Shown here: positions 1-20,000 of the stretch, in pieces
Numbering within the stretch: the first letter of the stretch is position 1
Layout of the letters: each line of letters starts with the position of its first letter
NCBI GenBank assembly: GCA_001724265.1
Contig: MEDY01000073.1
Location: 121,483-141,482, forward strand
DNA from: Rhizaria sp. SCN 62-66
Taxonomy: Eukaryota
Direction: 5' to 3'
DNA length: 20,000 nt
Notes under the pieces: generated by a model
Database searches by the model: none
Told to the model about the DNA's origin: nothing
What the model saw: the letters and a program-made list of their open reading frames with translations, nothing else
Translations under genes and position numbers: made by a program

Positions 1-3000
1 CTGCCATACGTCCTTAGCCAGCTCCATGCGGCGCTGGAAAGGGCGGTCCATGTGGCTGGCGTCATGCGTCCCGTCGGCGTCGGCCAGCGACTGGTTCGGC
101 ATCAGCGATGCCGCCGCAATGAGGCGCGACGCGTACGCGCGGTGAAACGCGGCCAGACGCGGCGCCATGGCGGACGGCGGCGTATCCTCAACGTCGTCGA
201 AGGACGCGCTAGGGCCGTGGCCCTGATGCACGCCACGCATGTGCTCGAACAGCTTCGCCTGGCGACGCGAGCGGTGGAAGCGCAGCGTCCAGTCACCGTT
301 GTAGCAGTACGCCTGCGGGCCCTCCTGCAGCTCAGACGCTGGCAGCGGGCCGCCGATGCCGCCGGGACCGGAGCCCACAGAGCCGAGCAGGTGGTGCGCA
401 GCGCCAGGGGCGCCGGGCTGGCCGGGGGCGCCGGGCTGCTGACCGTCCTTGCCCTGCTGCGCGGCATCCTTGCCCTGTTGGGCGGCGGCATCTTTGCCGT
501 CTTTGCCCTTGCCATCCTTATTGTCAGCAGCGGCGGCGCCAGTGGCGGGCGCGTCAGCCAACTCGTCGAGGTTGTCGATACCGTTAAGCGCATTAGCGGC
601 GGCCTCGGCCAGCGCGGCCTGCTTAGCGCGCTCCTCGGCGCGGCGGCGCTGCTTGGCGCGCGTGGCGTAGAGCTGCTTCACTGAGCCGACCAGCGCGGCC
701 TCGAAGCTCTGGAAGAAGCTGAGGCGCACGGCGTAGCGCAGGTGCGACACACCGAGCTTGGCAAGGTACTCTTCGAGTCCAAGGCGCGCGTACAGCGTCG
801 CCATCGACTCGTGCAGCGGCGTGCGGAGCTTGACACCCATCACGGTCGCGATCTGCGCCGGCAGCCCGTCATCGGGCGACGCGTGCGGTGCAGCGCTCGA
901 GCCGGGCGTCGCAATCGACGCCAGCGACGGCCGTCCGCTTTGCGCGCTGGACGCCGCGGGCGCAGCCTCGGGGGCGGCGGGAGTGGCGGGCGTCACGGGG
1001 GCTGCAGCGGACTTGCTGCGGCCCTTGCTGTTCTCACGGCCGTCCTTGCTCTCGTCGCCGAGCTTGCCCGACGTGGCAGCGCCGCGGCCGCGGCCCTTGT
1101 CCGAGCTGCCGGTGCGCTCGTCAGCGAGGTTGCGCGTCGTGCCCGTGCGGCGGCCGTGCGTGACGACATCAGGACCACGGTCCTTTCTACTCTTGCTGCC
1201 ACTGGCGCCAGAGTTGTTGACGGCGGCGGCGAAGCCCTCGGGGCGCGCGCAGAACTCGCTAGCAATGAGGTCGTCGACGTTGCGCTGGGTGATGTCCATC
1301 ATCTCGCGCACGACGAACTCGACGGCGTTGACGATGACTTGCGTGTGGGAGTCCAGGCGACGGCCAGCGAAGAGCGCTAGCGTGCGCTTGTCGAGCAGGA
1401 AGAGACGGCGTAGCAACATGTGGTTCACAGTCGACTGCAACGTCTTGCGCGATTCAGAGTCGGCGTTGTTGTTAGTATTGTTTCCGCGGTTGTTGCCCGC
1501 CGTCGCGCGCTGCACTTCCGCGTTGGCGCCACTGCCGGGCGGCCCCTGGTCGGAGCGCGCAGCGGCCTGCTGCGCAGTGACGGTAGACAGGTGCTTGGCA
1601 AAGGCCAGAATCGCGGGGAAATCCTTGGCGGCCTTGGCGATGACAGCAGTGGGCAGCACAGACCACGCGGCGGAGTGCTTAAGGTCGTGCTTGGCCGACT
1701 GCGCGAGACCGAGGCGCGCGACGGCAGAGCGCGAGTGCGTGCCCGACCGATCGTCCTCTTCGTCGCTCTCGTCCGAGTCCTCCAGCACGACGGTCGACGA
1801 CCAGTCGCGCCAGATCTGGTCCAGGTACTCGCTGCGCAGCGCGTGGCTCCACCCGGACTGCACGTCCTCGTCCAGACCGACCCAGTTGGTCGCCGTCACA
1901 CCGGGCGCCAGCGGCGCCAACGGAGATGTCGCAGACGCCAGACGCTTGAACGGGCAGCCACCGGACCCCATCGCGACGCCCTCGCTCGCCGCAGCGGCCG
2001 CAGCCGCCGCGGGGGCGGAGGGCGCCGCGTCGCGACCGAGCTTCTTGGTGCCAAGACCGGGAGACAGCGGCGTGGCGGACACGTTCGCGGCGGATGCACT
2101 CGCGGCGGGAGGCGCGTCGTCGGCCTCGACGGGCGCAACGCGGCGCTCGGGCGACAGCGCGCGCGCGACGACGCTGCCCGACGCGAGCGTCGCGTGCACC
2201 GTCGTCAGCGCGGGGCCCGCGCCGCCGAGGCCCGCGGGCGCGAGAAGGGGTGCCGACGCAGCGATCGTCGCGGCGATTGCGGCCACGGGCGCGGTGCCCA
2301 ACAGCGCCGCGCGCGCCTTCGCGAGCTGGCGCACTCGGGACGACAACGACGAAGACGACGCAGACGCCGCACTAGGGGCAGCGCCGAGCTTGCCGCCCAG
2401 CAGCGCCGCATCCAGGTGAGCGAGGTTCGCAGACACGGTGCCGGTGCCGCTGTGCAGCGCAGTGAGGAGACGCGAGCGCTGCTGCGCCAGCGGTGTTGCA
2501 GCCGCGGGCGTGGCGGTCTCGTCGGGGACGTTGGGCGTGGCTTCACCAGCTAGGGACTCGACGGCGGTCGCATTGCCACCGGCCGCGGCAGTCGCAGCGG
2601 CTGCAGCCGCGTTGGCGGCGTGCGAGCCGAGCACGACAACCGCGGCCATGATGTGTGGCGGCAGCGCGTTGGTGGGCACTCTCGCGGACATGTCGCACGC
2701 CAGCGCCGAGGCGGGCGTCGTGGCGTGTGAGGAGCGCGAGTGTGCTGACTTGAGCATCGTCGCAAAAGACGCCGCCCCGCCAGCCGGAGGAGAGCTCGAC
2801 AAGCGGCTGATGCTGTTGGCGTGCGAGCTAGCGCTGGTGAAGGAACTGTTCGAGTCTTGGCGGTGGAACGCGGAGCCGGTGCCGATGTCCACGGTGCCGA
2901 AGCCAATGCGCGCGCCGCCGATTGGCAGCGCCATGTCATCCGTGGTCGTCGCCACGCCGCCCGCGCTGGACCCGGCCGCGGCGCCGGAACGCGAACGGAT

Positions 3001-6000
3001 CTCGGGCCGCGCAGAGTTGGAGCGCCCGACGACGGGGCCCGCGACGGGCACGCGGCCCATCGCAGCGTCATTCTGCGCCGCGGCGGCGGCCGCCTGCGAG
3101 CAGGCCGCGGAGGACGCCGCGAGTGTGTTGGCAGCGATGATCGAGGCGCACGCGAAGCGGTTGCCCACGAGCGGGTCGGCAACGGAGGACAGCGCGAGGG
3201 AAGCAAAGACGTCGAGGTCCACTGCTGTGTCGGCCACGGGGCACACACCACCCACGTCGGCCTCAGTGTCGTCCGTCTGACGCGGGCCCTTATCCGCGCC
3301 GGCACCCGTCGTCGCAGAGGCACTGGGGCCCACGGGCGGGCGCGGTACGTTGGCACCAGTCAGCGTCGCCGCGGGGCGGCCCAGAGTCCCAGGCCCGTCG
3401 CGCGCAACGAATGGGCACTTGCCGGCAGGCATCGCGTTCCGGCCACCAGCAGCGGCAGTCGCGGCGCCGATGCCCGCGGCAGACGCGGCGGCGGCGACAG
3501 CAGCGGCGTTGGCGGCGGCGTTGACGCCATTGGCAGTCGCGCCGCCCTTGACCAGCGCCGTGTTGATGCCCGCAAGTGCGCTGTCGGCGCCATTCTGCGC
3601 GGTGACGTGGCCGGGCAGCGTGACGGGCGAGTGGCGCAGCGCGGTGGCTGCGCCCTCGCGCATGCACGCGCAGACATAGACGAGCGCCTGCAGCCAAGCA
3701 TCGGCCACACGCGGACCCACGTGTTCGCGGCTATGGTTGATCGAGTCTCCGGGATGCGACGACGTCAGCGACGAGTGCGAATGCTGGGGCGAGTGGGGCG
3801 CGCCAACGACAGTCGCGTCGCACGCCAACTGCTCGGAGCCCATGCGTGACAGCGGCGGCGTCGGGTTCACAGTGCCACTGGTGAAGCGGCCGACGCTGAC
3901 GTTGCCCTGCACAGCCACAGATGCGGACGGCATCTGCGCAGCACAGATCACCGCAGCAGAGGCTGCCGCCGCAGCAGCAGACTCACGCAGAGTGGCGTCG
4001 CCACCGGACATCGCAATCTTCTGCATAAATGGGCCAAACGGGAGCATGTAGGCCGTGCGACGGCTGTTGATGTCAGCAACGGAGGGATCAATCCAGTCAT
4101 CACCCATTGCGAACTGCAGCAAGCACAACATGACAAATGCGAGGCCGGCAAACGTGTCCGACTGTACGCGGTAATACACAGCGTGGCGACCACCGCACTG
4201 CTCCAGCGCCGACACGCGGCGGCGGTCCAGCACGGAGAGCGCGTCATCGCCGGGCGCCGTGTGTGCGAGCGCGGCAAGGTAGTCCTGGGACTGACGCGCG
4301 AGATGCGCCTGGCGCGTGTGCGCGGCAAGCGGCAGCGAGAAGGTCTGCGCGACGAGCACTGCCGCGGCCTCGCAGTGCTGCACCTGGTCCACGTTCTGCA
4401 TCAGCAGACGCGACTCAGGGTGGATGGCGTAGAAGGAGCGGAAGATGATCTCGCTGCGGGTCAGCGCGCGCAATGCACGGCTCCAAGTCGCGCGCAGCTG
4501 CACGACGACGTCGTCGTTGGGCGCGACGGGAGGGCGCGCAATGAGCTCCTGCAGGATCGCGGGCGAGATCACCCACGCGCGCGACGCGGCCGCGGAGGCA
4601 GTCGTCGACGTGCCGCTCATCACGTGAAGCAGCGGGATCCCGCTGTCGGAGCGCACGGGCGGCAGCAACAGCGGCGGTGCGACAAACGCGCTGCGGCCGT
4701 GGCGCTGCTGCGCGCCCGCGTGGTCACGATCAGCGCCGCGCGCGTCCTGACCGGGCGCGACGCCCGTGGAACCCATGGCGAGCGTGAGCGTGACGCGTGA
4801 CGAGTGCGCGATGCGTGCCATGACGGCGCCCAGGAAGCCGTGCAGGAACTGCATCGCACCCGTGGGGCCGCGGCCGATGATATTGACCAGCGGCGCCGGG
4901 AGCGGCCGGGACACCAGCGCACCGGACTCGGCCCACTGCGAGGCCAGTGAACCTGCCGTGCCGGAGTAGACCATGTCGGTGAGCTGCTCCGAGAGACGCG
5001 TCTGCGTGGCGGAGATGCCAGCGCTGGCGCCGCGGCTCTGCGGAGCGGACTGTCCACGCACCTCGAGGTGTGCGAGCGCGACGGCCTCCATGTAGGCCAG
5101 GAAGACCTTGTCGAGCATGTCGGTGGATAGTCCGGCTGAGAGCAGCACGCGCACGCTGCGCACGAAGTCAGCCTGAATGCGGCGCTGCGCCAGCACCGAG
5201 GGAGTCAGGCGCTGCGTCATTGCGGCGACGGCGGCCGCGGTGTCGGCCTCGGTGATGTTGGGCTTCGAGCCTGGGGTCGGCGTCGCACTGGGTCCGGAGA
5301 TGTTCTGCGACGCCGCGTCGAAGGCGTCGTGGCCGGCAGCGTAGAGAGGGTTAAGCGTCGCCGCCGCGAACAGCGACGAGAGGTCAAAGAGACTGCGCAC
5401 GTGGCACTGCGACGAAGGCGCGACCGAGGGCTGACCGGAGGCAGCAACGGACGCAGCAGTAGCCTGTGCGCTAATCTGCGCGAGCAAGCTGTAAAGACGC
5501 ACAATCTTGTACACCATGTTGCGGTGGTTCGTCGGGCGTAGACGCGGGTCGCGCGCCTGCGGGACCTTGTGGCCCGCGCGCGACACGCCCGCCGCCGACA
5601 TGGCTTCCGCAGCAGCGCCGTGGATGCGGTCGAGGCCTTCAGAGTAGTCGCAGAGCTGCGTGGCAACGCGGGGCGAGCGCGCGGCGAGCGTCGTGTAGAC
5701 GCGGTCCTCGAACGGCACACCAGGCCGCGTGCGCTGCGAGTGCAGCAAAGCCTGCGCAGTCGCCAGCGACTCGGCGGAGCCCATCGCGGGCGGCATCACG
5801 AAGGTCGCGGGACGCGACGGTGCCGTCGTCGGCGGCTGCGACAGCACAATCGTGTCGTCAACGTCCACCGCCTGCATCGCGACGGGGCAGCCGGCGGCCG
5901 CGGCGTGCAGCCGCAGCGTATCGAGGCTCACAGTGGCGGCGAGCAGCGCAGGCGGCAGCGGGTGCGGCACCGACAGCGTGCGGCCAGTTTCAGCGATCGT

Positions 6001-9000
6001 GATCGTGCGCGGGGCCGAGGGCGCGGGCACAGCAGCGGTCGCCTCAGCAGCCGCAGCCGCGGCGGCCGTAGCACTGGGCGCGGGGCCCGTTGTCGCGGTC
6101 GCGGTCTGCACGCCGGAGAGGATGTTGGCGAGCTGGGGGAAGTCGGGGCGCGAATCGTAGCCATCGGACGCGGCCGCGGCGGCGTCAGCAAGAACCTTGG
6201 CGCTGTAGCGCGCACGCGGCGACGCGATGTCCTTGTCCGACCCGAAGGCAGGTTTGGTACGGCCGACGCTGGCAGTGACGCTGACGTCGCAGGGCGTGAG
6301 GGGCGACGCAAGCACAGTCATCGGCAGGTGCCAGCAGGGCTGCGTGCGGATCTTGCGCGCATTGGACTGCGAGGGCCGGCCGAAGGGCGTCTCGCGCAGC
6401 GTGCAGCCGGGCGGAGTCACGTAGGCAGCGGAGTTGGGGATCGAGACCCCAGGACCGTCCCACATGACCTCGCCGCGGGCCAGAGCAACTTGTGCCGACG
6501 CCGCGTAGCGCGCTGACGCACGGCGCGCGCGCAGCCACATCTCCTGCTCGGTGCGTACGGATGAGTTTACGACGGCGCGCACAGCAAAGCTGCCGTGCGT
6601 GCTCTCGGCGGCGTCGGGCGCGGCGGCCTTGGACAGCGCGAGGCGGTCCGACGCCGCGTATGACGTCGCAAAGTCGTCCAACCCGGCGCCGTAGAGGTGC
6701 TGCGCGCGCAGCAGCGCGAGAACGTCGGAGTCGGGAATCATCCCCGTCGCCAACGACACCACTCCGGGCGTCGGGACAACGCCGCTGTTGCTGCGGCCGC
6801 GCGAGGCGTGACTACTGGTCTCGTAACTCTGTCCGATGCCGCCAATGCTGCCGCTGCGGCTGCGACGCGTGCCCGCGGGCAGCGCAGACGAACCTGAAGC
6901 GGCGTCGCGCTGCAGCGGGAAGCCGTAGGGGTTGAAGGTGTAGGTCTCGTAAGGGTTCTTGCGCGCAGCAGGAAGCGTGGACGCAACCGTGTGAATGTAC
7001 ATGTTGAGGCCGTCACTCGCAGCAAGCTCGCGCTGCAGCGCTGCGTCCTCACCAGCGGCCTCTGCAGCAGCGGCAGACATCGACGGCTCGTTATTGTCAA
7101 CGCCACCCATCAGCGGCGGAAGCGCAAGTGTGGAGCTACCGATACCGTTCGCGATCGCAGTGGTGGCGTTGCCTCCGCTACGGCGGCGCGAGTCGTTCGC
7201 TGAGGCCTGGATGCAGCCCAGCACGAGACGCATGCGCGGCAGCGTGAGCGGGCCCAGCGGTGCGAGTGCCTGGCGCCCATTGAGCGCCTCGTCCTCAAGC
7301 AGCGCCGCCTCGATGGGCAAGTCGTTGCCAATGGCGTTGAGGCGCTTGCCCAGACCGCCGAGTCCCTGTGGCACGTCGCGCAGCTTCGGCAGGTTGGCGA
7401 AGGCGTCAGTGAGCGTGTTGAGGTGGCGGCGGCGCTGCGCGTAGTACAGATGCAGCTGCGGGCGCCACTGCTCTGGAGGCAGGGACAGCGGCATTGACAC
7501 AGGGAACAACAGCGAAGAGGCGTGTGGGTTGCTCGCGGCCGTGAAGGATGGCAGCGGGCGCGCGTAGCCACCCGTGGTGACGGCCGTGGCATCGGGCGAC
7601 GTGGCCGGCACGAGTGTGGTCATCTTGACCGACGTCAGCGCGATAGTCGCCAGCGCCGACGCCAGCGTCATAGATGCAGAATTGGCACCGCCCGTGCCGT
7701 TGCGCGTGCTGTGGCGCGGCATCGCCGACATTTGCGACGCAGCTAGCGCTGACGCGGCGGCGCCCGACTCGCTGGCGGATGTGGAGCCGACTCTAGGAGC
7801 AACGCTCTCGTCAGCAGCACCCGCGGCGGCGGCAGCGACGGCGCGGCACGTGGTCTCGTTGGCGACGTCGATAAGCGGCACGGCGGCGTGGTCGGCGAGG
7901 TAGCTGAGCAGCGGGAACATGTCCGCGTACACGCCGACGATGCCGATGGAGCGGCAGTGCACGAGCACGGGCGAGCCGTCGTGCAGCAGGTATGACACGT
8001 CGATGCCCGAGGCCACCGTGACGTCCACCAGGAGCTCTCTGCCGCGGGAGATGTCAATCTGGCCGGGGTGGTACAATAGCAGCGGCACGCCGCGGTCGCG
8101 CACGGTCGCCGCGACGCTATTGGTCACGCCCTGTGTGAGCGGCAGCGCCGACAGGAACGCTGACAGTGAGTCGATGTCCGTGAAGGGGCAGCCGTCGGCC
8201 GAAACACGCGGTCCGTCGTCCACGCCGCCCGCGGGAGCGGCGGGCGTGTCCTGGTGCAGCTGCGCCGCCGAAGCGGGACCGTTGGAGCTCATGCCCGTGT
8301 GCGGCGTGCGCATGCCATGCGCGGCTGGCGCAGTCCCCGCGGTGCCAGGACCGGCGGCGAGGTCGACGCCGGAACGCGAGACCGAGAGCGAGCCGTCGGC
8401 GCGCACCAGCACGGGACCCGATGGCGTACCGCGCTCTGATTTGCGCGAGTGGCCCAAGAAGGTGCGCTCGGCGCGGTCGGCGCGCAGCACGGCGTCAGTC
8501 AGCGTCGCAGGTTCGAACGACGCGCGGTGCGGCGGGTCGTACCACGAGCGGCCCGGTAGCGCCGTGATCTGCTGGTGGTGCGCGATGACCGTGGACGAGG
8601 GCGGGCCCAGCGCGCAGATCTGCAGCCGGCCGCAGAGGCTCCAGCCGACGAGCGGGACGTCAACGAAGGGCGCTGCGGGGCTGCTGCCCAGCGCGCCGGG
8701 CGGCATGTCGGGCGGGTACGCCACGCGCGGCAGGTGCGGCAGGCGCTGTTCGTTCAGCAACGGCATGCGCGGCGCGCGCGTCACACTTGGCGCGGACAAC
8801 GCTGTGGAGGACGGCAGACTGGCGAGCACGGCGTCGGGGATCTGGGAGTGTCCGTGGCGTCCGCTGCGGCGCCCGCTGCGGTGGCTGCGGCGGCCGTTGC
8901 TGTCGTCAGCCTTGGCGTCAACGACGGCCGCGGACGTGTTCGCAGCGGTCGCGTTATTGGCATCGTCTTCCTCTGCGTCGCTGTCGTCTACGTCGCGGTC

Positions 9001-12000
9001 GCATTGCGAGCCTGAGCCACAAGCGCGCGCGGCGGCGGCAGCGGCCTCGGGCGTGTCCTCCGCGCTGAGCGCCGCGCTGTGGCGCAGCCCGACGCCACCG
9101 GAGCCAAGGTTGTAGAGGCCGGAGCCCGAGGCAGCAAGCGCGACGGGCGGCAGCGAGGACCACGACCACAAGGGTGCGGGAATAACGAGATCCGGGCGCA
9201 GCAAGCGAGGGGAGCCGGGCGCGCCGTCGACGAACGGCGACGGCTGCGGCACCAGCGCGGCAGCCGCGGCGTGGATCGAGACGTCGGCCGAGAAGGCCGC
9301 GTTGGGCAGGTACATGCGCAGCGGGTGGCGCATGGCGTGCGCGGCACCGAGCAGCAGCCCGCCGCGCGCGACGAAGCTGTGCGCGCGACGCCGGCCCTCG
9401 GCAACGACGTCGGAAAGCCAGGTAGCGAGCCACAGCCACGAAGCCTGCACGTCGCGCGACCAGATCATGTCGCGCGCGTCGGCGTCCACCGACAGCGCCT
9501 CGTCGCCCTTGGCAGCGGCAGCGACCGCGCTCGAGGCGCCGGCACCCGGAGCGCTGGCGGAGCCAATGCGGAAGCCGGAGCTGAGCGTGGGCGACGTGGT
9601 GGGCGAGCCTGAGGCGGAGGAGAAGCCCGACAGACCAGCGCCGTGCGCGCCGCGGCGGGTGCGACCCGGCGCGGCGGTGGGCGCGGGTGCGGCGGCGGTG
9701 GGGCGAGTGGAAGCGCGGTAGGCAGCGACGGAGGGCATGATGCCGGCGAGCAGCGCGACGTTAGGCGAGTGCGAGTGCGAGAGCGAGAGCAGCCACAACA
9801 GGGACGAGAGCACTGGCGAGGAGCGCGCGAACACGGCGGCGGGCACGCACGGGTCGATGAGTGCGGGCGACTGGCGCTGTGCCGCGGTGAGCGTGAGCGA
9901 CTCGGCCGCGGTCGCGCGGGGGTCCGCGTTGGGGCCGCCCGGGGAGCCGGACGGGGAAGCGGACGCAGTGGCGGCGGCGGCTGCGGCGGCCACTGCGGCA
10001 TCGACAGCCGAGGTGGTGCTCAGGCGGCGCGGTGGCGCGGGCGTCTTGCTGGCCTCCTTGGCGGCGGTGACGGCGCGCTGCGCGGCGGCCTGGATCTCGG
10101 GGTCGTGGTACTCGGGCAGTGCGGGCGGCGCGGGCGGCAGCGCGGCCGAATCGAAGACCGTCGTGGTGGGGGTGTAGGACAGGATCGTGCTGAGGAGCGT
10201 AGAGCCAGTGAGCGGGGTGTGCACTTCGGCCGCGGGGTGCAAAGAGAACTGCGCGAACGACCACTCCTCGATGGCGCGGTACAGCGCCGAAAAGAAGGCC
10301 GGCGGTACCGCGGTAGCCACGGCGAGCACGGTGTACGCGTGCGACATGGCCGCGAAGAAGCCGTCAGGGTCCTGCGCCGTCGCGAAGGGGAACGGACGCG
10401 TGTAGTAGCCGCTGTGCGCGCCCTTGGAGCCGGAGGCGGAGCGGTGGCGTCCGCTGCTGATGCGCGACACTGACGGCTGGTGCAGCGGCTGTCCACCGTG
10501 CGCGTGCGAGTGCGCGGGCGCGGAGCTAGGGGACGAGCCTGCGACGTCGGCCGCGGTGCGGTGGACGATGAAGGGCGCGGGCAGGTGCGCGAGGATGAGG
10601 CGCACGGCGAGCTCCATCACCGGCGACGCCTGCAGCAGCGGCTTCGCGGGCGGCGCGGGTGGCGGCGGCAGCGGGGTATCCCCAAGCGCCGCGGCAGGCG
10701 CCGGCGCGGGCTCAGCCGCGGGCGCTGCGGCGGCCACGGCGGCCGGGTACGTGTTTGCGAGCGCGGTCAGCAGCGTGGACAGCGAGGCGGCGGCGGCCTC
10801 ACCGGCGCGCGTCCAGCTCGCGGGGGCAGCGCTGTTGGCCGGCGCGCGGAAGAGCGAGTTGGGCCCCGAGGTGGCGACGCTGTCGAAGCCACCGGACGCG
10901 GGCAGCACCATTACGATGGGCTTGGTGCCGGCGACAAGCGCGGACGACGCGTTGCGCAGTGCGAGAGCGACGCGGCCACGGATCAGCGGCAGCGCACCTG
11001 AGACGCGGCCCCACAGGTGGAAGAATCCGCGTGACGCGCGCAGCAGTGCTGTGCGGTAACCTAACGTGTCACGCTCGGACTCAGACACCATGGCCGAGAG
11101 CGGGAAAGAGGGCAGCATCGTGATGAGCGAGTTGTCGGGCACGCCGCGGTTGAGCGCGGGTAGCGTCAGCAGCACGCGGCGTGGGTTGAACGCGTCCAGC
11201 ACGCCCAGCGGGCGCGGCGTCACGAAGGGCGCCGAGGGGCCCAGTCCGGCGGCCGCGAGCAGCGCGCTCGACTGCTCGCTGAGCATGAGAGCTCTACCGC
11301 CCGCGGGCGGCGAGCGGCCCGCCATGCCAGGCACCAGGAGCGTCAGCGCGCCCACAGCATGCGAGGGCGGGGAGCTGGTGACGTTGGCGTACTGCTGTAG
11401 CAGAGGGCGCGCCTGCGGGGACATCGGCGGCCGGCCGTGGGCGCCGCGGCGGCCCGAGTGCGGGGAGCGGCCGTACGCGCGCGACGACAGCGGCATCTGG
11501 GGGCCGCCCATTCCGTCACCGTGGCCGTGCCGGAAGCCGCGCGCCGAGAGCACCTGTCCGAAGGCGAGCGAGCCGGGCGTGGAGCCGAACGCGAGCGCGA
11601 TGGGCGAGTCCTCGGGCCGCAGCAGGCGGTTGTGGTGACGGTGCGAGCGGCGCGCGGACAGCACGCCGACCATATTGGGCTCGTTCGCTGCGGCTGCTGC
11701 CAGCGCGGGCGAGCCCATGGTGGCAAGCAGCTCGCGGCGGAGGACCTCGGGCGCCTCAGAGCCAGGGTGCAGACGGCCCTGGACGGGATTGTACTGGCCG
11801 TTGCTGAGCAGCGAGGCCGTAATCGCAGAGGCCTCCTGCATGCCCAAAGAGCCGCGAAGCAGCATGTCCATCGGCGGCTCGAACGGGCCAGTGAGTGCGG
11901 CCGGCGTCAGAGCGGGGAGCTCGGACAGGAACGGGCACTGCGCGTCGGTCGAGGCAAGCAGAGACAGAGAAACAAGCGATGCGACACCGCGCATCGTGTC

Positions 12001-15000
12001 GGCGCGGAGGCGCGCACGGCGGATGCTCGCGTCAACGTTACCCGTGCCCGCGCCACCGGCGGCAGCGCCAGCAGTAGGAGCCGCGGGGCTCTTGATCACG
12101 GCGTTAGGCGCGGCCTGCGTGGAGGCGTTGTTGCCCACAGTGCGCGCGAGCAGCGAGCCGGCCGTGGCCGTGTCGGGGTGCGTGCTCTTGTACGCAATCT
12201 CGTCCGCGGCCGCAATGGTCGTCGTGGTCGGCACGAGCAGCGCCCAGGCGCCGGACTCGACGGGTGCTGGCAGGTCAAGCTGCGCACCAATCAAGTGCGC
12301 GAACATGAGCCACGACGCGCGCACCTCGGGCGTGAAGGTCAGGCCCAGCGCGTTGGCTACGGCCGAGTTCAGCGAGGTGATGGCCGTCCGCCACTGCGAG
12401 ACGTCGCCACCGTTAGACACGAGGCGCGCGCGCAGAGCAGTCAGCACCGTCGCTGCTGCACGTGCGTGCGCGGGGAAGCGCACGGGCATCAGAATGCCCT
12501 CGACGTGAGCAACTAGGGCCGTCACAGTCTGCGCAAGCCACAGCGTCGTGGTCTGCAGCAGCGATGACGACTGGAGGAAATCCCAGTGCGATTTCATCGA
12601 TGTGTCGCCGTTCTCCTTGAACTTGGCCACGGCGTCGTGCGCGACTGCGCGGATGACCTTAGCCCACTCTTTAGCGAAGTCGCCGAGGCGGTCCGCGCCC
12701 GCGGCGGGCAGCTCGTGCAGCTTGTTTCGGTTGCCCGGCGCGCCGACATGGCGCGCGTTGGTGCCCAGCGGCGGCGAGCGGTTCGCTGCGCTGATCTCGA
12801 TCTGCGAGCCCATCGCACCGACGCCGCGCTTAAGCGTGAGGTGATGGCCGTTCTCGCCGCCGTCGTCGTCGCCAAAGCCAAAGCCGCGCGGCGGACGCAG
12901 ACCCATGTCCATGTAGCGCGCGTTGAGCTCGTGGCCCAGTCCTACGCCCTCGGTGTTGTCTGCATCCTCGTCGCCGGTAGACTTGTTGCCCGCGTTGTCG
13001 GCGTCGCTGCCGGTGCGCAGACGCAGATCCTTCGCGTTGAAGCCAGCGGTCGAGCTCGGAGCCGCGGCCTCATCACCTTCCTCGAGCACCTCGACGGTAA
13101 CGCCGGAGCGCGTACGCGCGTGACCAAGGCCGTCAGGTGGCATCAGCGTCTGCTCGTCCATGAGGAAGGCGGGCAGCTGGCCGGGGCGTGAGTCGACGCC
13201 GACGTCGCAGCCGGTGATGTTGGCCCACGAGCGCTTGAGCATGATCATGCGCTGGCCGTGCTGCAGCACGGCGTCGTGGTTGATCGCGCCCTCCTGCGCC
13301 AGCACGCGCGCCGCGTCGGACAGCGTCTTGAGCGAGCCCGCGACGGGGCGCGTCCAGTTATCACCCAGCACGGCGCGGCAGGCACATGCAAAGGCCGCCG
13401 AGAGCGTTGCCAGAGTGTCGCGGCACGACGCCATCGTGATGCGCGAAACGGCCGCGGCGGGGTCGGCGTTGCGCGCGCGGCTGCGGCTCACGGCCGAACG
13501 TGTCCCGCGGGCGCCGCCGTGGTGGCTGCTGCCCATGCGCCGGTTGCGCACGCTGTGCGTCGCAGAGACGCGGCTGCGACGGGAGCCGCGCGCGGCGCCG
13601 CCGTTGCCCCAGGCGCCACCAGCGCGCGCATTCGAGTCGTCGGAGCCGTCAGAGTCCGCATCGTCGTCGCTGAGGGGCGCGTCAGAGTCTTCGTCCTCGT
13701 CCTCGTCTTCGTCGTCGTATTCGCCGTCGTCGAAGTCGAGGTGGCCGCCCGCGGCGTCACCGTCAAGCCCGTCAGCAACGCCCACAAGCATCTCCTCAAC
13801 TGAAAAGCCGACGGTGAGCCCGGCCGAGGTTAGCGGCGCGCTCGTGTCCATGCTAGGGTCGTGATCCAAGTCGATGCCGAAGTCGCCCAGAAAGTGCGCT
13901 TTGAGCGCCATCAGGTCAACGTCGTCGGGCAGCCCGACGCCCGAGGCCGCAGCGCTGGCGGCGGCGGCAGCACCCTTGGCGCCTAGCACCGTGCGCAGCA
14001 TGACCATGCTGAGGTGCGCGGGCGAGGTCCCCGCGGGCACGGCCGATCCGTCGATGATGCCGTTGCGTCCGCTGGCCTGAGCGAGATCTTGTGAACCGGT
14101 CAGGATGGCCAGCTTGGCACCGAGCGCGCGCCACATGGAGCAGAGCTCGGGCGGCAGTACGTCGCCGTGTAGCGACGCCGCGACGAAGGGCGTCGCGTGG
14201 CGCGTGGCGAGGTAGTGCGCGTCGAGGCTGTGCAGGCGCGCCGTGGCCGCGCGCGGGGGCGGCAGGAATGGCAGCCCCGAGACTGGGAGCGTGCACGGAG
14301 GCTCGAACGGCGCCGGGTCGCGCATCACCTGCGGCTGCGGCGCGTCGCCGTCGCGCATTGAGGCCTTGGCCACGCGGTCGCGCTCGGCCGCGGCGAGGCG
14401 CTCCTTCTCCTGGTGCTGTTCCATGAGCGCGCGCAGCTCCGCCGCCTGGCGCTGCTCCATATCGGAGCGAATCTCTTGCAGCCCGGTAAACAGCGCGTCG
14501 ACGCGGATGATTGACTCGACCGTGGGCGCGGCGCGGGACTCGCCGACGGGCCCGGTGCCCGCGTTGGTGGGCGAGCCGGGCGCAGCCTGGCCCGTGGACT
14601 TAAAGGCGCCGAGCATGTCCATGACCTTGCTGGCGTCACGCGGGCGCGGCGAGCCAATGCCACCTGCGGAGGTGGCCGCGGCGACGACGCGGTCGAGCGC
14701 GTCGCCGGAGCGGTGCGCGGCAAGCCAGGCCACTGTAGCGTGCGCAGCCTTAAGGTATAGCCGCTGCACGTGCCAGATCGGGTCTGCCTCATCGTCGAGA
14801 GCGTCGAGCAGCATCAGCTCGCCGATCACGATCGCGGCCTCGGGCGCCGCGCGAGTCGCGTCGGGCTCGGTGCCCACCGCGGCGGCGCGCTGCGAGCGGG
14901 CCAGCGCCGCCGCGGCCGCGTCCGTGGCCTTGCCGGTGACCGAGGCGACGTGGCCCGCGGCGCGCGCGGCGGCGGTCATGGCCGCGGCGACGACCTGGTC

Positions 15001-16134
15001 GAGGCGAAGCGGGATCGCGGCCGCCAGCCCGAGCCCCGCGTTGGCGTTGCTGTCGGCGGCCGCGAGCGCGGTGGCGGCCGCGGTGGGCGAGCTCAGCGAG
15101 AACGCGCCCGCGCCCTCAGAGGGCGAGCGCGGCGCTGCGTCGGCGGCCGACAGCGGCGGCTGCGAGAAGTCAGCAGTTGGCGACCCGGGGCCCTGCAGCG
15201 GCAGCGGACCCGGCGCGCCAGTGGGCGAGAAAGGCTGCTGGCCCGCAGCCGAGCTGAGCGCGCTGGCGGCGACGGTGGCGACGGCCGTGGCCAAGGGCAC
15301 CTCGCGGACGACGAAGCCTGCGCCGCCCGCGGCCGAGACCGCAGAGTGCCCCGCAGCGGCGGCGTCTGAGCTGGACAGCAGCGCGCGCGCAAGCACTTCG
15401 GGTACGGACAGGCGCAGGCTGTCGTAGGAGGCCAGGGTGAGCGGGCCCAGCTGCGTCGCCATGACCGACGCCGCCGCGGCGGACGCGCCCACGGTCTTGC
15501 TCGCGACGGCGCCCGTCGCGCCCGCGCCGCCTGCCGGGCCCGCGGCAACGGCGGCGCTGCTAGAGCTGGTGAAGGCGGAGGTCGACGCGGCGGCGGCGGC
15601 GGCGCGGGCCGCGGCGAGCGCTTGCGCGTTGGCGGCGGCCGAGGGGAAGAGGCGGCAAGTGTTGGTCACGGCCTTGAACGCGTTGTAGGCGGCGCGGAAG
15701 GCGGCGACGAAGGCAAGCCTGCGGTCGAGAAGCGCAGTCCACGCGTGTGCCATGTGCGCCACGGCCACAGGGTCGTGGAACGGATGCGTGCTGCCCACAC
15801 CGTCGTTGAGGCTCTGCACGGCCGCGGCGGCCGCGGCGGCGGCATCGGCGGCCGCCTTGGCCTGATGCGCCTGCGCCTGCGCCTGCGCGCGCCGCGCCAT
15901 CTCGGGCGACGACAGGCTCGCGGCTGAAGGCACGAACAGAGTTGCAGCCGCGCCAGGGGTCGGCACAACGGCGGCCGCGGCGGCGTCCTTGGCGGGCGCC
16001 TGCGCGACGAGCGCAAGCGCAGCATCAGTCGCCGCGGGCTGGGTCGGGGAGCCGCCCGGAGGCGAGCCGCTGGGCGCCGCCGCGGGGGCGGTCGCGGCGG
16101 ACGCGGTCGCGGGCAGCGCGGCGGGTGAGGCAAG
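1..16134 (-). CDS. Exon 4, part after the TAG: 5,378 open codons running off the window edge
   Basis: Stop-free frame in register with the upstream part, with the same codon usage and several globin-like motifs. Missing from the ORF track because it has no stop inside the window. Confidence 0.88.
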
Positions 16135-16754
16135 CTACGGCGCGTCCGGGTCGAGCGCAAGCCCGACGGCCGTCGCGGCGCCCGCGGCCTTGGCGGCGCC
16201 GACGGGGCCCGAGGCCACGATGGCGGGCGCGGCCGCGGCGTCGGGGCCCGCCCTGCGCGGCGTGAACACGATCGGGCCCGCGGGTGAGGTCTCAACGCCA
16301 GACGCGGCGGCGGCGGCGGCGGCCGCGGCGGCGGTGCGAGCGGCGCCGCGGGCGCCCTGCGCGGCTACGGCGGCCTCGCGCGGAGACATGCCCGACGCCG
16401 CGGCGGCCGACAATACAAGCCGCAAACTCGTCGAGTGCCCGGGCGACAGGCTGCCGTTAGTCCCGCTGGCGCCGCGCGAGAGCATCGGCGTCGCGGGGTT
16501 GGTCTCGGTACCCGCAGCGGCGGCGGCGGCGGCGGCGGCGGCCTCGTCCTCGGCGTCAAAACCGTCGAGCACTGCCGCGAGCGTGATGTCGAGCGCCTCG
16601 CCGACCCAGAAGAGCAGCCGCGTCCACGCCTCCTCGCACTCAGGCGTCCACACCGCGGTGGCGGCCACCGCGGGTGCAGCGCCAGCGCCGGCGCCGGGCG
16701 GGGCGGGCGCGATACGGCGGGCCGAGTGCGGGGGCGCCACGGCCGCCGCGCCGC

Positions 16755-16787
<33 letters not shown>

Positions 16788-18336
16788 GGGCGAGGACACG
16801 GCGCGCCGAGAGCATGTTGCTGCTGGAGCCGGCGGTCGAGCCGGGCCCCACACCGGCGGCCGCGGGGGTGACCAGCTCGATCGCCTCGTCGGGCTCGTCC
16901 GAGATCACCACCACGCGCTTCTTCTCGCTGCTCGCGGCGTCGCCGCCGGCGCCGGCAGACTGGGCGGCGTACTTTGCGCCCCCGCCCGTGACGGTCGGCG
17001 CAGGCGCCGTGGCGGGGGCGGGCGCGGGCGCGGCGGCGCGGCGCGAACGTGAAGGCCCGAAGCACGAGCAGCAGTCGCCGTCGTCGTCGTCGTCGGGGTT
17101 CGCGGTAGCGGCGAGCTTCTTGCTGTTCTTGCCCTCCTTGCCGTCCTTGGCGTCCTTGCTGCTGCCGGCCGCGCCGCTCTTGTCACCGGCTGCGGCGGCG
17201 GAGGCGGCGGCCTTGGCGGTGGCGCCGGCTGCAGAGGCCGGGGGCTTGGCAACGTTGCGGCGCGGGCTGGGCATCACGGTGCGGCCCGTCAGCATGTCGC
17301 CGTCCTCGTCGTCGGTGCCGGCGCCGCTGCGGTGGTCGTCGTCATCGTTGTCTTCGTTGCAGTTGTCGGGCAGCGAGGGGAGCGCCGCGGGCGTAGCGTT
17401 GCCGCTGGCCGTGAAGGGCACCACGGCGTCAGGGTCCGCCGTGGGCGAGAAAGCACCCGCAGCGGGCGTGCCGCCGGCCCCGTCGGCGGGCTCGGCCCAG
17501 GCCGAGGGCGCGGCGGCTGCGTGCGCGTCGGCTGCAGTGAGCCGCAGCCACTCGTCCTTGATCACAGAGCCCGCGAGGGTCATCAGCGGGATGCAGAAGT
17601 CGTCGCCCACCGAGGCCTCGGCAAGGCGGTAGCCAACATCTTGAATCTGCGAGGGGGGACGCAGGGCGACACGGCGTCGCAAGTGAGGTGAGCGCAGTAA
17701 GAATGGAGCGAAGAGAGTTAGGAGGAGCAAAAGAAAACAAGACGGGGGTGTCAAGAGGAGAGATAGAGGCGTACCTGTTCACTGATGTTAGCGGGGTTGT
17801 CAATGTTCTTGATAGAGACACTGATAATGTCGACAAAGTCACCGACAATAGTCTACAAGGCGCATAGGAAGAGTGTTAAAGAGGGATTATGTGAGAGTTT
17901 AGGTGAGCTTATCAAGAAACGGCCGACAGAGCATGTTATGACCACTCTCAAGCAACGCGCAATCACGGGACCAAATGCGTGCGGGTACGTACCTCGTGCT
18001 GGTCACTAGGAGCGCGGTCAGCAAGACTACTGTTCTCAGGGAGGAGAAGCTGCGCAGGGTGGGGTAAGGAGCAAGTCACGTGAAGAAATGGTTAGCGTTC
18101 GGGAGGTGCGGACAGGTGCAGTACGGTTGAGCAAAGATACATAAGGAGAGGGATATATAGAAAATGAGCGTTTATAACGCATATTTTGATCTCATGACAT
18201 TTGACGATGCAGAACCTCTGTACGCGATGCAAAAGAGGAGACGTACCTTTTTAAGCAGCTGCTCTTTGAGAGTAGAGGTGTTGTGCTGAATTCGAGCCCA
18301 AGTACCCGTCACCAGGTGCTTGTTCGGCAAAGCCAT
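1..18336 (-). CDS. Giant multi-globin-domain protein, 3'-truncated by the window edge. Exons 18336-18247, 18049-17993, 17852-17775, 17646-<1; at least 5,957 codons with one in-frame TAG at 16135-16137
   Basis: I read the minus frame whose codons sit at + positions 1 mod 3 and found no TAA/TAG/TGA between 16134 and 1. The ORF track also lists no terminated ORF in this frame there. The long + strand ORFs starting at 2 mod 3 are its wobble-aligned shadows. The spliced N-terminus reads MALPNKHLVTGTWARIQHNTSTLKEQLLKK/LLLPENSSLADRAPSDQHE/TIVGDFVDIISVSIKNIDNPANISEQ/IQDVGYRLAEASVGDDF, a coherent globin-like A-F helix pattern. Globin motifs recur downstream. Confidence 0.85.
100..1830 (-). other. Globin domain with Phe CD1, His E7 and His F8, split by insertions (within the giant CDS)
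   Basis: A-like YLDQIWRDWSSTV; B/C/CD LLRRLFLLDKRTLALF (Phe 1369-1371); E helix LDSHTQVIVNAVEFVVREM (His 1345-1347); F-G LEEYLAKLGVSHLRYAVRLSFFQSFEAALVGSVKQL (His 742-744); possible H helix PRLAAFHRAYASRLIAAASL near 100-160. Confidence 0.78.
3652..4518 (-). other. Globin domain with distal and proximal His retained (within the giant CDS)
   Basis: A helix VVVQLRATWSRAL; B/C SEIIFRSFYAIHPESRLLM; E helix DQVQH (His 4375-4377); F-G SALEQCGGRHAVYYRVQSDTFAGLAFVMLCLLQFAMGDDW (His F8 4183-4185); after an insertion of about 120 aa, H helix VGPRVADAWLQALVYVCACMREGA. Confidence 0.8.
9394..11060 (-). other. Degenerate, expanded globin-like domain
   Basis: H-helix-like IWSRDVQASWLWLATWLSDVVAEG (9394-9465); EF-G-like QDPDGFFAAMSHAY...AVPPAFFSALYRAIEEW (10261-10374); weak A-like ALLRASRGFFHLWGRV (about 11000-11050). 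Confidence 0.5.
12277..13251 (-). other. Degenerate globin-like domain, probably not heme-binding
   Basis: A-like RMIMLKRSWANI (13216-13251); F-like VLTALRARLVSNGG with Leu at the expected His F8; clear G-H segment WRTAITSLNSAVANALGLTFTPEVRASWLMFAHLIGAQL. Confidence 0.65.
13285..15775 (-). other. Degenerate, heavily expanded globin-like domain
   Basis: A-B-CD-like AVAHMAHAWTALLDRRLAFVAAFRAAY...CRLFP (15643-15770); F-like LMALKAHFLGDFGI (about 13875-13915); G-H-like LSAAFACACRAVLGDNWTRPVAGSLKTLSDAARVLAQEGA. It may represent more than one domain. Confidence 0.5.
16135..17646 (-). CDS. Exon 4, part up to the in-frame TAG (a 578-aa product if TAG terminates)
   Basis: Acceptor TCGCAG|ATT at 17647/17646; matches most of track ORF 16135..17754. 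Contains F/G-like 'IQDVGYRLAEASVGDDFCIPL' and H-helix-like 'VWTPECEEAWTRLLFWVGEAL'. Confidence 0.8.
16756..16785 (-). repeat. (CAG)10 microsatellite encoding poly-Gln
   Basis: Ten perfect ctg triplets on the + strand, in frame as Q10. Confidence 0.95.
17647..17774 (-). other. Spliceosomal intron 3 (128 nt, phase 0)
   Basis: GTACGC...CCTAAC...CCCCCCTCGCAG; pyrimidine-rich. Confidence 0.78.
17775..17852 (-). CDS. Exon 3 of the giant gene (26 codons, TIVGDFVDIISVSIKNIDNPANISEQ)
   Basis: Acceptor CCTTGTAG|, donor CAG|GTACGC; encodes a globin E-helix/EF-like segment ('IKNIDNP' resembles the common 'VKNLDDP'). Confidence 0.78.
17853..17992 (-). other. Spliceosomal intron 2 (140 nt, phase 0)
   Basis: GTACGT...TTTAAC...CCTTGTAG. 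Confidence 0.72.
17993..18049 (-). CDS. Exon 2 of the giant gene (19 codons, LLLPENSSLADRAPSDQHE)
   Basis: Acceptor GCGCAG| with a GCTAAC branch-like motif about 40 nt upstream (18091-18096); donor GAG|GTACGT; keeps the frame. Confidence 0.7.
18050..18246 (-). other. Spliceosomal intron 1 (197 nt, phase 0)
   Basis: GTACGT...GCTAAC...GCAG; lower GC, pyrimidine-rich on the coding strand. Confidence 0.72.
18247..18336 (-). CDS. Exon 1 of the giant gene (30 codons, MALPNKHLVTGTWARIQHNTSTLKEQLLKK)
   Basis: ATG at 18336-18334; ends AAG|GTACGT; encodes the globin A-helix-like segment 'HLVTGTWARI'. Confidence 0.8.
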
Positions 18337-18598: not shown

Positions 18599-19677
18599 AT
18601 GTCTAGACGTCATATCACCGTCATTAAGCGGCAGCAGCCGCCGTCACACATCCCAGCCCCTTCATCCGCTCCCCAGATTGGACTTGGTTCTGTGTCACAT
18701 AGGGTACGTCAATAGATGTATGCAACGTTCAGCGACTTAGCCACTAGTATTTATAGTTGTAATTTATGTAATATTGTCTAAGCTCTTTCGTTTTCATCTT
18801 CTATTTCGTTATTCGTGTTCAGGTTCTTGCAGTAACAGTCGCGTCTGCCGCGTCCCACAACGCAAGGCTCCAGCGCGATGCCCCCATTCACTCTCCCGCT
18901 GACAGCGTCGCTCGTCAGTCAACCGTCCCTTCTAGGGCAGTCCCCCGTCCGCGCTCGCAGCCCTCACCCTTGCTTGCGACGTCGCACGCCGGCCGTGCGC
19001 TAGCATCCCTGTTTGTGCCCGCCACGGTAAACGCCGCCCCCGCACGCGCTGCCCCTGCAGCGCCGACCGCGCCGGCCTACACCCCGGACCGCATCGCGCT
19101 TGCGCGCGAGCTCAACGCGTCCCGCCGCGCCGCGTCGTTCGCTGCCCGTGCCGCCGGCGCCGCGCCGGAGGACGGCGGCTGGGTCGCGGCGGCGCCCGTG
19201 ACAGCCGCGGCGGCCGGCCCAGAGGCAGCGGCCGGCGCTGCGGCCGCGGCCGGCGGTGAGGACGAGGAGAACGGCCGCGGCGATGTCGGCGCCAGCGACG
19301 ACGGTGGCGACAGTTCGACGAGTGGCAGTAGTGGCGAAGATAGCGCTGGCAGCGGCAGCGACAGCGATGGCCATCGGCGCCGGCGTCACAGGAGCAGTGG
19401 TAGCGAAAGCAGCAGCAGTCGCCGCCACCGTAGTCGTGACCGCGACCGTGACCGTGACAGTTCCCGCCGCAGCCACAACAACAGCTCTCGGTCGCACAGC
19501 TCGAGCTCATCTCGCCACGAGAAGCGCGACAAGCGGGACAAAAGGAATAGGAAGGACAAGAAGGAGTCTCGGCACCGCAGTGACCGGGACCGCAGTGACC
19601 GTGATCGTAGCCATAGTGAACGGGACCGCAGTGACCGGGACCGTGAGTGTGACCGTGACCGCAGCAAGCGGTGGTGA
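18599..19677 (+). CDS. Two-exon gene (18599-18703, 18823-19677; 319 aa), low-complexity protein with an Arg/Ser/Asp/Lys-rich C-terminus, probably nuclear or splicing-associated
   Basis: ATG 18599; MSRRHITVIKRQQPPSHIPAPSSAPQIGLGSVSHR|GTACGT; pyrimidine tract and TTCAG acceptor at 18822; frame continues VLAVTVASAASHNARLQ into track ORF 18970..19677 and ends at TGA; RD/RS dipeptide repeats and basic NLS-like runs. Confidence 0.8.
18704..18822 (+). other. Spliceosomal intron (119 nt, phase 0)
   Basis: GTACGT donor, AT-rich body, long T/C tract, CAG acceptor. Confidence 0.82.
19575..19666 (+). repeat. Imperfect coding tandem repeat with a unit of about 15 nt (CGCAGTGACCGGGAC, encoding RSDRD)
   Basis: Repeated cgcagtgaccg(g/t)ga(c/t) units; a related GACCGT run lies at about 19432-19458. 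Confidence 0.8.
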
Positions 19678-19882
19678 TCACGCTGGCTGTTCGTTTACAC
19701 TCAACAATACTACCTAGCATATCATGTATTTATATTAGCGCATATATACACAGTCCATGTCCTGATATTGAAGTCCAGTCAAAAGTTGTTGAGAAGTTGG
19801 TTAGTGTATTTGTAGCGTTGTTGCGTGGATGATAGAGATAATGGCAATGAGTAAGAGGCAAATCTGCGGGAAGGCATTGAAT

Positions 19883-20000
19883 TTACCGGGCAGCCTTGGC
19901 AGCACGCTCAATCTCGCCGCGCTTCTTGATGGCGAAGGAGTTGAGGTTGTCGGAGGCGCAGTTCATGATCTCGTCAGCGAGGCACTCGGCAACGGACTTG
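19883..20000 (-). CDS. RPS5: 40S ribosomal protein S5 (uS7), C-terminal 38 aa (partial)
   Basis: Translates [41 protein letters not shown], matching the eukaryotic uS7 C-terminus ([38 protein letters not shown] type). Confidence 0.95.

Follow-up and report, generated by a model that had tools for sequence, protein, structure and literature searches.

UAG is very probably used as a sense codon throughout the genome of the organism studied here, and the best explanation, to which we assign a probability of about 0.68, is that it specifies glutamate genome-wide while UAA and UGA serve as stops, the change involving a tRNA(CUA) and an altered release factor, eRF1. The window, i.e., the whole 20,000-nt stretch that was analysed (G000:C73:121483-141482), belongs to a eukaryotic assembly of 34.9 Mb in 714 contigs, and positions 16137-16135 of its minus strand read TAG, in the context GAC GCG CCG TAG CTT GCC. 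In a four-exon sequence model (Table 1), this TAG is codon 579 of a gene of 7,962 codons. A sequence-only reading of the window had reported an in-frame UAG at this codon with 5,378 open codons after it, and the exon model confirms both; 7,383 codons are open in total when the frame is followed out of the window to its TGA. The statement that composition continues unchanged on both sides, with no GTACG intron nearby, also stands: GC content is 0.82 upstream and 0.80 downstream of the TAG (0.47–0.58 in the introns of this gene), the coding scores of the two sides are 0.31 and 0.37 (-0.28 to -0.40 in the introns), and of the 13 GT dinucleotides found within 300 nt before the TAG, none has a GTACG donor. 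No pyrimidine tract is present at the TAG. The first in-frame ATG past it lies at 15900, as had been stated, and the interval between the two contains no AT-rich spacer.

A 4,077-nt contig (record 1) from the DNA run X3 spans the TAG and covers positions 13500-16295 with 0 differences in 2,796 nt, a comparison of contigs rather than raw reads in which X3 may be the source data of the assembly itself. Run X4, a polyA library from another study and a strain diverged by about 1%, provides contigs on 13500-15018 and 16569-17132, flanking the TAG, and has no depth over 17732-18099 (introns 2 and 3), although the library may contain DNA. Among the contigs listed for runs X4, X5 and X6, no good one lies over the TAG, and none of the listed RNA contigs covers it; four of the 12 runs were compared at this site, and those with a small share of the organism are uninformative. 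The codon sits in a low-complexity stretch and is uninformative as to which residue is inserted. No paralogue or repeat could be aligned across any of 24 low-complexity TAG sites, this one included.

The predicted product of the giant gene is 7,962 aa long and rich in Ala, Pro and Ser. A single globin scores above the Pfam cut-off (residues ~5969-6069, E 1.1e-6), just beyond window position 1, and a weaker partial match lies within the window (Table 1). The sequence-only reading had placed the TAG after a first globin-like domain, so that termination would release a 578-aa single-globin isoform; this is not supported, no Pfam globin having been detected before the TAG and the comparison of the giant protein with itself giving E 1.1. 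The portion before the TAG gave 0 matches in the ESM Atlas, and a single-sequence AlphaFold model of the best globin region (pLDDT 43.8) was set aside. By eye, further helical stretches of the giant protein look globin-like (window 1-18336 and L009 3983-10000). The C-terminal motif resembles what we take to be flavohaemoglobin reductase ends, with no Pfam match. Between the RPS5 gene and the giant gene, the sequence at 18772-19730 is GC-rich and repeat-like, with overlapping ORFs on both strands.

Table 1. Features of the window. Exons and introns are those of the giant gene.
Feature	Position	Strand	Details
Exon 1	18247..18336	-	ATG at 18336; sequence model, no spliced RNA contig
Exon 2	17993..18049	-	Sequence model
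Exon 3	17775..17852	-	Sequence model
Exon 4	1..17646	-	Holds the TAG; runs past the window to TGA at G000:C73:115465
Intron 1	18050..18246	-	197 nt, GTACG donor, GC 0.47
Intron 2	17853..17992	-	140 nt, GT-AG, GTACG donor
Intron 3	17647..17774	-	128 nt, GT-AG, GTACG donor
Weak partial globin (PF00042)	664..819	-	E 0.0043, 18 bits, below the 22-bit cut-off; residues ~5685-5736
uS7/RPS5, 3' end	19883..20000	-	PF00177, E 5.6e-8; stop TAA

Stop-codon usage was tabulated in about 0.95 Mb of the genome (~2.7%), with a dicodon coding model trained on 77 long ORFs. Stops flanked on both sides by best-frame coding sequence consisted of 24 TAG, one marginal TGA and no TAA in 877,415 bases, and the same count with looser filters gave 15 TAG, no TGA and one TAA in 690,249 bases. 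About 69% of the one-step routes to a stop lead toward TAG in this genome; random nonsense would yield about 69–71% TAG, and the probability of the internal-stop split under it is ~0.001–0.002. Stops with only upstream coding sequence numbered 160, of which 86 with an upstream donor-like motif (44 TAA, 31 TGA and 11 TAG, a few of the last possibly genuine gene ends) and a further 8 with GC-rich downstream sequence were set aside. The remaining 66 clean gene ends comprise 38 TAA, 26 TGA and 2 TAG, and both TAG candidates proved non-terminal on inspection, one lying in an open polyQ frame and the other in poorly scoring sequence. The tabulation, a check that the sequence-only reading had suggested, places TAG inside many genes of the sampled sequence and TAA and TGA at their ends, and it supports the option, raised there, of a rarely used reassigned UAG. 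Genes with an in-frame TAG include those for eRF1, SUV3, UBE2J1, a DEAD-box helicase and five kinases, so that in the sample UAG is internal to unrelated genes, conserved essential ones among them, and unused at gene ends, while UAA and UGA are terminal. A count of TAGs inside protein family matches overstates the case, since 10 of the 18 lone TAGs so reported (kinase 9, Helicase_C 3, AAA_6 2, DEAD 1, kinesin 1, ubiquitin 1 and eRF1 1) turned out to be intron acceptors and were excluded; the kinase matches L159 and L160, which contain mixed stops, were left out.

TAG is the rarest codon of all, with 18 occurrences in 114,282 confident codons (1 per ~6,350). At this rate 1.25 would be expected in the giant gene, and the single TAG there is what the sample predicts; for this reason the earlier argument against reassignment, based on the rarity of a single TAG in ~5,950 codons, falls. 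Like TTA, TAG is commoner under weak codon bias (7/10,790 versus 3/56,604 codons). Its 18 occurrences stand against 4,050 of GAG, while a first-position synonymous comparison, AGG versus CGG, gives 142 and 686. Dynein heavy chains contain no TAG in 31,934 codons (P 0.007; four genes were read and four were judged free of exonic TAG by open-frame length). The base after internal TAGs is C in 9 cases, G in 7, T in 4 and A in 4. The +4 C to which the sequence-only reading had drawn attention is present at the window TAG, but it is not enriched among in-frame TAGs (9/24; p 0.32 versus GAG).

A search with PF03463 retrieved one eRF1 gene (G000:C63); the other match is a locus whose sequence we read as Pelota. 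The eRF1 gene has an in-frame TAG at L041 1594-1596 (G000:C63:103463-103465, minus strand), equivalent to human position 107, where 117 homologues have Glu in 106 cases (91%), Asp in 10 and Val in one. Termination here would cost the protein its catalytic domain. An identical TAG is carried by the metagenome contig L221, possibly from the same sample or assembly source; the metagenome scan yielded L221 and distant eRF1s but no sister species, and no relative with the same TAG was found. The eRF1 gene is strongly biased, with few A-ending codons, and its TAG is followed by the sole AAA codon of exon 2; the chance of a TAG in this gene is 0.02–0.07. Changes of eRF1 had also been proposed as something to look for, and candidates are present in the N domain: T32S, G57S and T58K, together with L124M and K130Q. 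T32 and G57 are invariant in 117/117 homologues and T58 in 116/117, while E55, L69, S70 and YxCxxxF are all intact. T32 is described as bonding the G of UAG and Iotanema eRF1 as carrying T32G (PMC5304391), and the standard-code relatives of Iotanema as having a standard GTS (PMC9161772). The T58K change occurs otherwise only in the closest relative, P0004, whose eRF1 is 84% identical, and we found no literature linking it with UAG. The P0004 protein retains T32 and G57, with Val in the TAG column, and may serve as an outgroup for establishing the sequence in which the changes arose.

The tRNA(CUA), likewise suggested as a check, was found as a single-copy gene. A pattern search returned 16 matches, one of which is this tRNA, at G000:C84:76008-76080 on the minus strand (L044 1489-1561); it has an Rfam score of 58 bits, lies between eukaryotic-looking genes and is followed on its 3' side by a T run (terminator). 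ARAGORN labels it a pyrrolysine tRNA on the anticodon alone, and this was rejected, as Rfam finds a standard tRNA, whose D loop has GG and whose T loop has UUC. Compared with the 24 tRNA types sampled from the organism, it is closest to tRNA-Glu(CUC) (score 68), with His at 52, Asp at 41, Leu at 35 and Gln at 34 and 24; tRNA-Glu(UUC) was absent from the tRNAs sampled. The tRNA(CUA) has the complete T-stem of the organism's own tRNA-Glu(CUC) and agrees with it at acceptor bases 1 to 5, and a 20-nt stretch of its D-arm occurs exactly in Glu tRNAs at 79 of 80 bacterial loci among the matches listed. In a phage collection, every annotated tRNA within the 19 longest matches is a Glu tRNA. The pattern of the tRNA(CUA) was not found in viral contigs. 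Identity to bacterial tRNA-Glu is at most 55/73, and to the organism's own tRNA-Glu(CUC) 47. The U1-A72 pair is that of the organism's tRNA-Glu and matches its tRNA-Asp as well, whereas G73 is shared with tRNA-Asp, tRNA-Glu(CUC) having A73. The variable loop is short. Judged by these sequence similarities, the tRNA(CUA) is of tRNA-Glu ancestry. No tRNA with a UUA anticodon was seen among the tRNAs sampled (63 of 506 candidates scored).

Nine in-frame TAGs have homologues with which the encoded residue can be compared, although four of them carry little information. The column scores over nine sites are -29.2 bits for Asp, -29.7 for Glu, -37.7 for Ala and -40.8 for Gln, and over eight sites -26.3 for Glu, -28.9 for Asp, -35.3 for Gln, -38.5 for Leu, -48.8 for Tyr and -67.3 for Trp, the worst of the 20 residues; Asp leads once eRF1 is omitted. 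In SUV3, the column contains D98, N7, E3 and Q2 (n=119) and a relative with 78% identity has Asp; in UBE2J1 it contains D94, E20, N15, S10 and Q1 (n=149); in kinase L108, A11, E11 and D7 (n=45); and the two closest paralogues of kinase L156 have Asp at the TAG. Sites L151, L155 and helicase L180 add little. At the TAG of the ubiquitin-like locus L203, the ubiquitin gene of the organism itself has CAG (Gln), in a comparison with 7 other replacements in 72 codons and with seven redundant Gln rows counted as three. An Ala-Glu repeat (L007) holds two TAGs, in place of GAG. The conserved columns thus point to an acidic residue without separating Asp from Glu, and the tRNA body, the one-step route from GAG and the Ala-Glu repeat shift the balance to glutamate, which we consider the probable residue. 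The Leu and Gln precedents cited in the sequence-only reading, and its suggested origin from TCG or CAG, fit less well than an acidic residue, Leu lying 12 and Gln 11 bits below Glu. Of some 30 TAGs listed, about 8 occur where the sequence is rich in Gln, several in polyQ runs, from which it follows that many TAGs arose from CAG, though this does not show what they encode. Gln makes up 11.8% of the flanks of TAG versus 3.9% for GAG.

Other explanations of the window TAG leave the standard code in place. A base-call error or nonsense allele, kept as an option by the sequence-only reading, would draw on the 69% of one-step stop routes that lead to TAG, and on the fact that contigs alone were compared and that X3 may be the source data. 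However, it would require errors at ~0.3% per base, or 8.4 expected differences over the X3 contig where none is seen. The eRF1 TAG is found in two assemblies, a nonsense allele in the N domain would be lethal, no second eRF1 having been found, and neither the tRNA(CUA) nor the gene ends would be explained, so that this account is very improbable. We give just as little credence to programmed readthrough in the giant gene alone, yielding short and giant isoforms; the +4 C and the low-complexity setting agree with it, but it is largely refuted by the genome-wide pattern, with 23 other such sites, some within conserved domains, a cognate tRNA and gene ends that do not use TAG; +4 C is not enriched, and no globin was detected before the TAG. 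Least probable of all is that the TAG is spliced out, edited, or placed between two abutting genes. TAG is a common acceptor in this genome, as the dropped family matches illustrate, yet the window TAG has neither a GTACG donor nor a pyrimidine tract and is bordered on both sides by GC-rich sequence with a full coding score; editing of UAG to UIG would produce Trp, the residue that scores lowest, and the AT-rich spacer expected of two genes is missing before ATG 15900. The TAG at 16135-16137 is real, and is very probably neither an error nor a single-gene switch.

The remaining alternatives accept UAG as sense and differ over its meaning or completeness. If UAG were Asp genome-wide, a Glu-bodied tRNA(CUA) with G73 would be charged with aspartate, and this would suit the tied column scores, the Asp majority or Asp at three sites, and the G73 and U1-A72 shared with tRNA-Asp; having no one-step synonymous path from GAC or GAT would explain the extreme rarity of TAG. 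Against this, the body, T-stem and D-arm of the tRNA are Glu-type, 91% of the eRF1 homologues have Glu at the TAG, GAG gives way to TAG in L007, and AspRS is thought to need a GUC anticodon. We regard the Asp reading as unlikely, and similarly a Gln code as in Iotanema, or a mixture of Glu and Gln arising from additional charging by GlnRS. TAGs within CAG runs, the CAG at L203 and the Gln-rich flanks favour Gln, but it is found in 0/117, 1/149 and 2/119 sequences at the three best-sampled sites, L203 is otherwise much altered, the tRNA(CUA) scores poorly against the tRNA-Gln genes, and Gln-rich contexts hold fewer TAGs (3) than the non-synonymous CGG (20) or CAT (39), with CAA at 299. A more serious possibility, though one that we do not favour, is that UAG is ambiguous, eRF1 still terminating in part; this is compatible with a Glu reading and would give a minor 578-aa product at codon 579 and a feedback loop in the eRF1 mRNA. 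It would be in keeping with the rarity of TAG and its absence from dynein heavy chains, with the single tRNA gene, with a T32S milder than the T32G of Iotanema, and with the improbable presence of TAG and the sole exon 2 AAA in a strongly biased eRF1 gene. However, internal TAGs show no +4 C enrichment and no TAG gene end is convincing, rarity would also be expected if a genome rich in GC had captured the codon recently, and the eRF1 argument involves a single site shared with no relative found. Somewhat more doubtful is a particular form of early code change, in which a tRNA(CUA) with a Glu D-arm of bacterial type would insert Glu or Asp, an acidic residue in either case, at UAG while a mutated eRF1 partly competes, and the UAG of eRF1 would provide an RF2-like negative feedback that governs the efficiency of UAG readthrough in all genes.

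Under the preferred reading of UAG as glutamate, a copy of a tRNA-Glu gene would have switched its anticodon to CUA, which is unable to pair with UAA, and we infer that GluRS charges its product. T32S, possibly in combination with G57S and T58K, would loosen the hold of eRF1 on a third-position G and so lead to a loss of UAG recognition. TAG would have entered coding sequences through one-base changes in neighbouring codons such as GAG and CAG, and may have remained the rarest codon because it depends on a single tRNA gene. Ribosomes reaching codon 579 would insert the residue and continue, presumably producing the full 7,962-aa protein with no gene-specific switch. Readthrough may be incomplete, given that dynein codons include no TAG and that its frequency is well below that of comparable synonymous variants.

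The organism is probably rhizarian. In trees of HDAC1, it and its relatives fall on the side of Bigelowiella and Amorphochlora (SH-aLRT 100), apart from Discoba, Amoebozoa and opisthokonts, and a heterolobosean grouping is rejected (p-AU 0.0001). The placement is graded no higher because it comes from one gene and quick trees of 30 and 65 of 120 matches, a sampling with no named stramenopile or confirmed alveolate, and paralogy is possible. Mitochondrial proteins and several dynein heavy chains are present, and the organism's sequence occurs in bioreactor and wastewater runs. A very divergent 4.4-kb SSU rRNA gene (L207 1500-5950; G000:C706) may belong to it but could not be placed; it contains several insertions resembling group I introns, and one of these may hold a His-Cys endonuclease frame. 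Ubiquitin loci include a ubiquitin of unusual divergence and several genes for ubiquitin-like monomers (L201, L202 and L204-L206), as well as a ubiquitin-like domain fused to Peptidase_S74 (endosialidase chaperone) with an in-frame TAG (L203 1501-2079; G000:C681), which may belong to a mobile element. Polyubiquitin junctions fall at contig ends and are unassembled.

Nuclear codes in which UAG alone is reassigned are described in Rhizaria sp. exLh (Sainouroidea; Leu) and Iotanema spirale (Gln) (PMC5304391), and in phyllopharyngean ciliates (Leu and Gln), Protocruzia tuzeti (Gln) and Scotinosphaera (Ser) (PMC11687900). They have in common with the present case a sense UAG, UAA and UGA as stops and a tRNA with a CUA anticodon, and Iotanema also has eRF1 changed at T32 (T32G there, T32S here); exLh possibly belongs to the same supergroup as the present organism. 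The codes described differ in that the residue appears to be acidic here rather than Leu, Gln or Ser, and coding sequence is GC-rich here. UAG occurs once per ~6,350 codons, compared with 78–91% of genes reported for the ciliates, and L69 is kept, where exLh has L69A. An exLh-type Leu code was rejected on the column score, the short variable loop, the tRNA-Leu score of 35 and the intact L69, and an Iotanema-type Gln code on the column and tRNA-Gln scores, although one site favours Gln. A closer parallel for the residue is Oligohymenophorea sp. PL0344, reported to read UAG as Glu via a tRNA(CUA) nearest to tRNA-Glu, but there UAA is Lys and 10 CUA tRNA genes are present (PMC10553269), whereas here UAA is the main stop (38/64 clean ends) and a single CUA tRNA gene was identified. 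Blastocrithidia spp. and peritrichs likewise have a tRNA-Glu(CUA) and avoid reassigned codons in strongly biased genes (PMC12153298, PMC11687900). In the same accounts both UAA and UAG are Glu, whereas no internal TAA was counted here under the main filters, and Blastocrithidia has UGA as Trp with eRF1 S70G, while S70 is unchanged here. The eRF1 TAG may recall bacterial RF2 and the release factors of giant viruses, and is offered as a lead: bacterial RF2, mimivirus and megavirus RF1 and plant eRF1-1 are described as having a stop-type codon in their own frame (PMC5397192), but here a cognate tRNA exists, no frameshift is involved and regulation is putative. In the literature searched (mostly open-access, without supplements), we found no case of UAG as Glu with UAA kept as a dedicated stop, and no description of Asp as the meaning of any stop codon.

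To our knowledge, UAA and UAG nearly always change meaning jointly, and in the few exceptions UAG is Leu, Gln or Ser, or UAA is reassigned too. The database protein P0401, identical to the organism's own SUV3 (L211), starts at a Met past the TAG, a truncation by standard-code gene calling, and it follows that rare reassignments are easily missed. If true, the reading proposed here would be an independent case of UAG as glutamate outside the ciliates, with the tRNA(CUA) and candidate eRF1 residues (T32S, G57S and T58K) in hand, and it would be relevant to freeing UAG for expansion of the eukaryotic code. The very low use of TAG makes this genome a candidate snapshot of codon capture.
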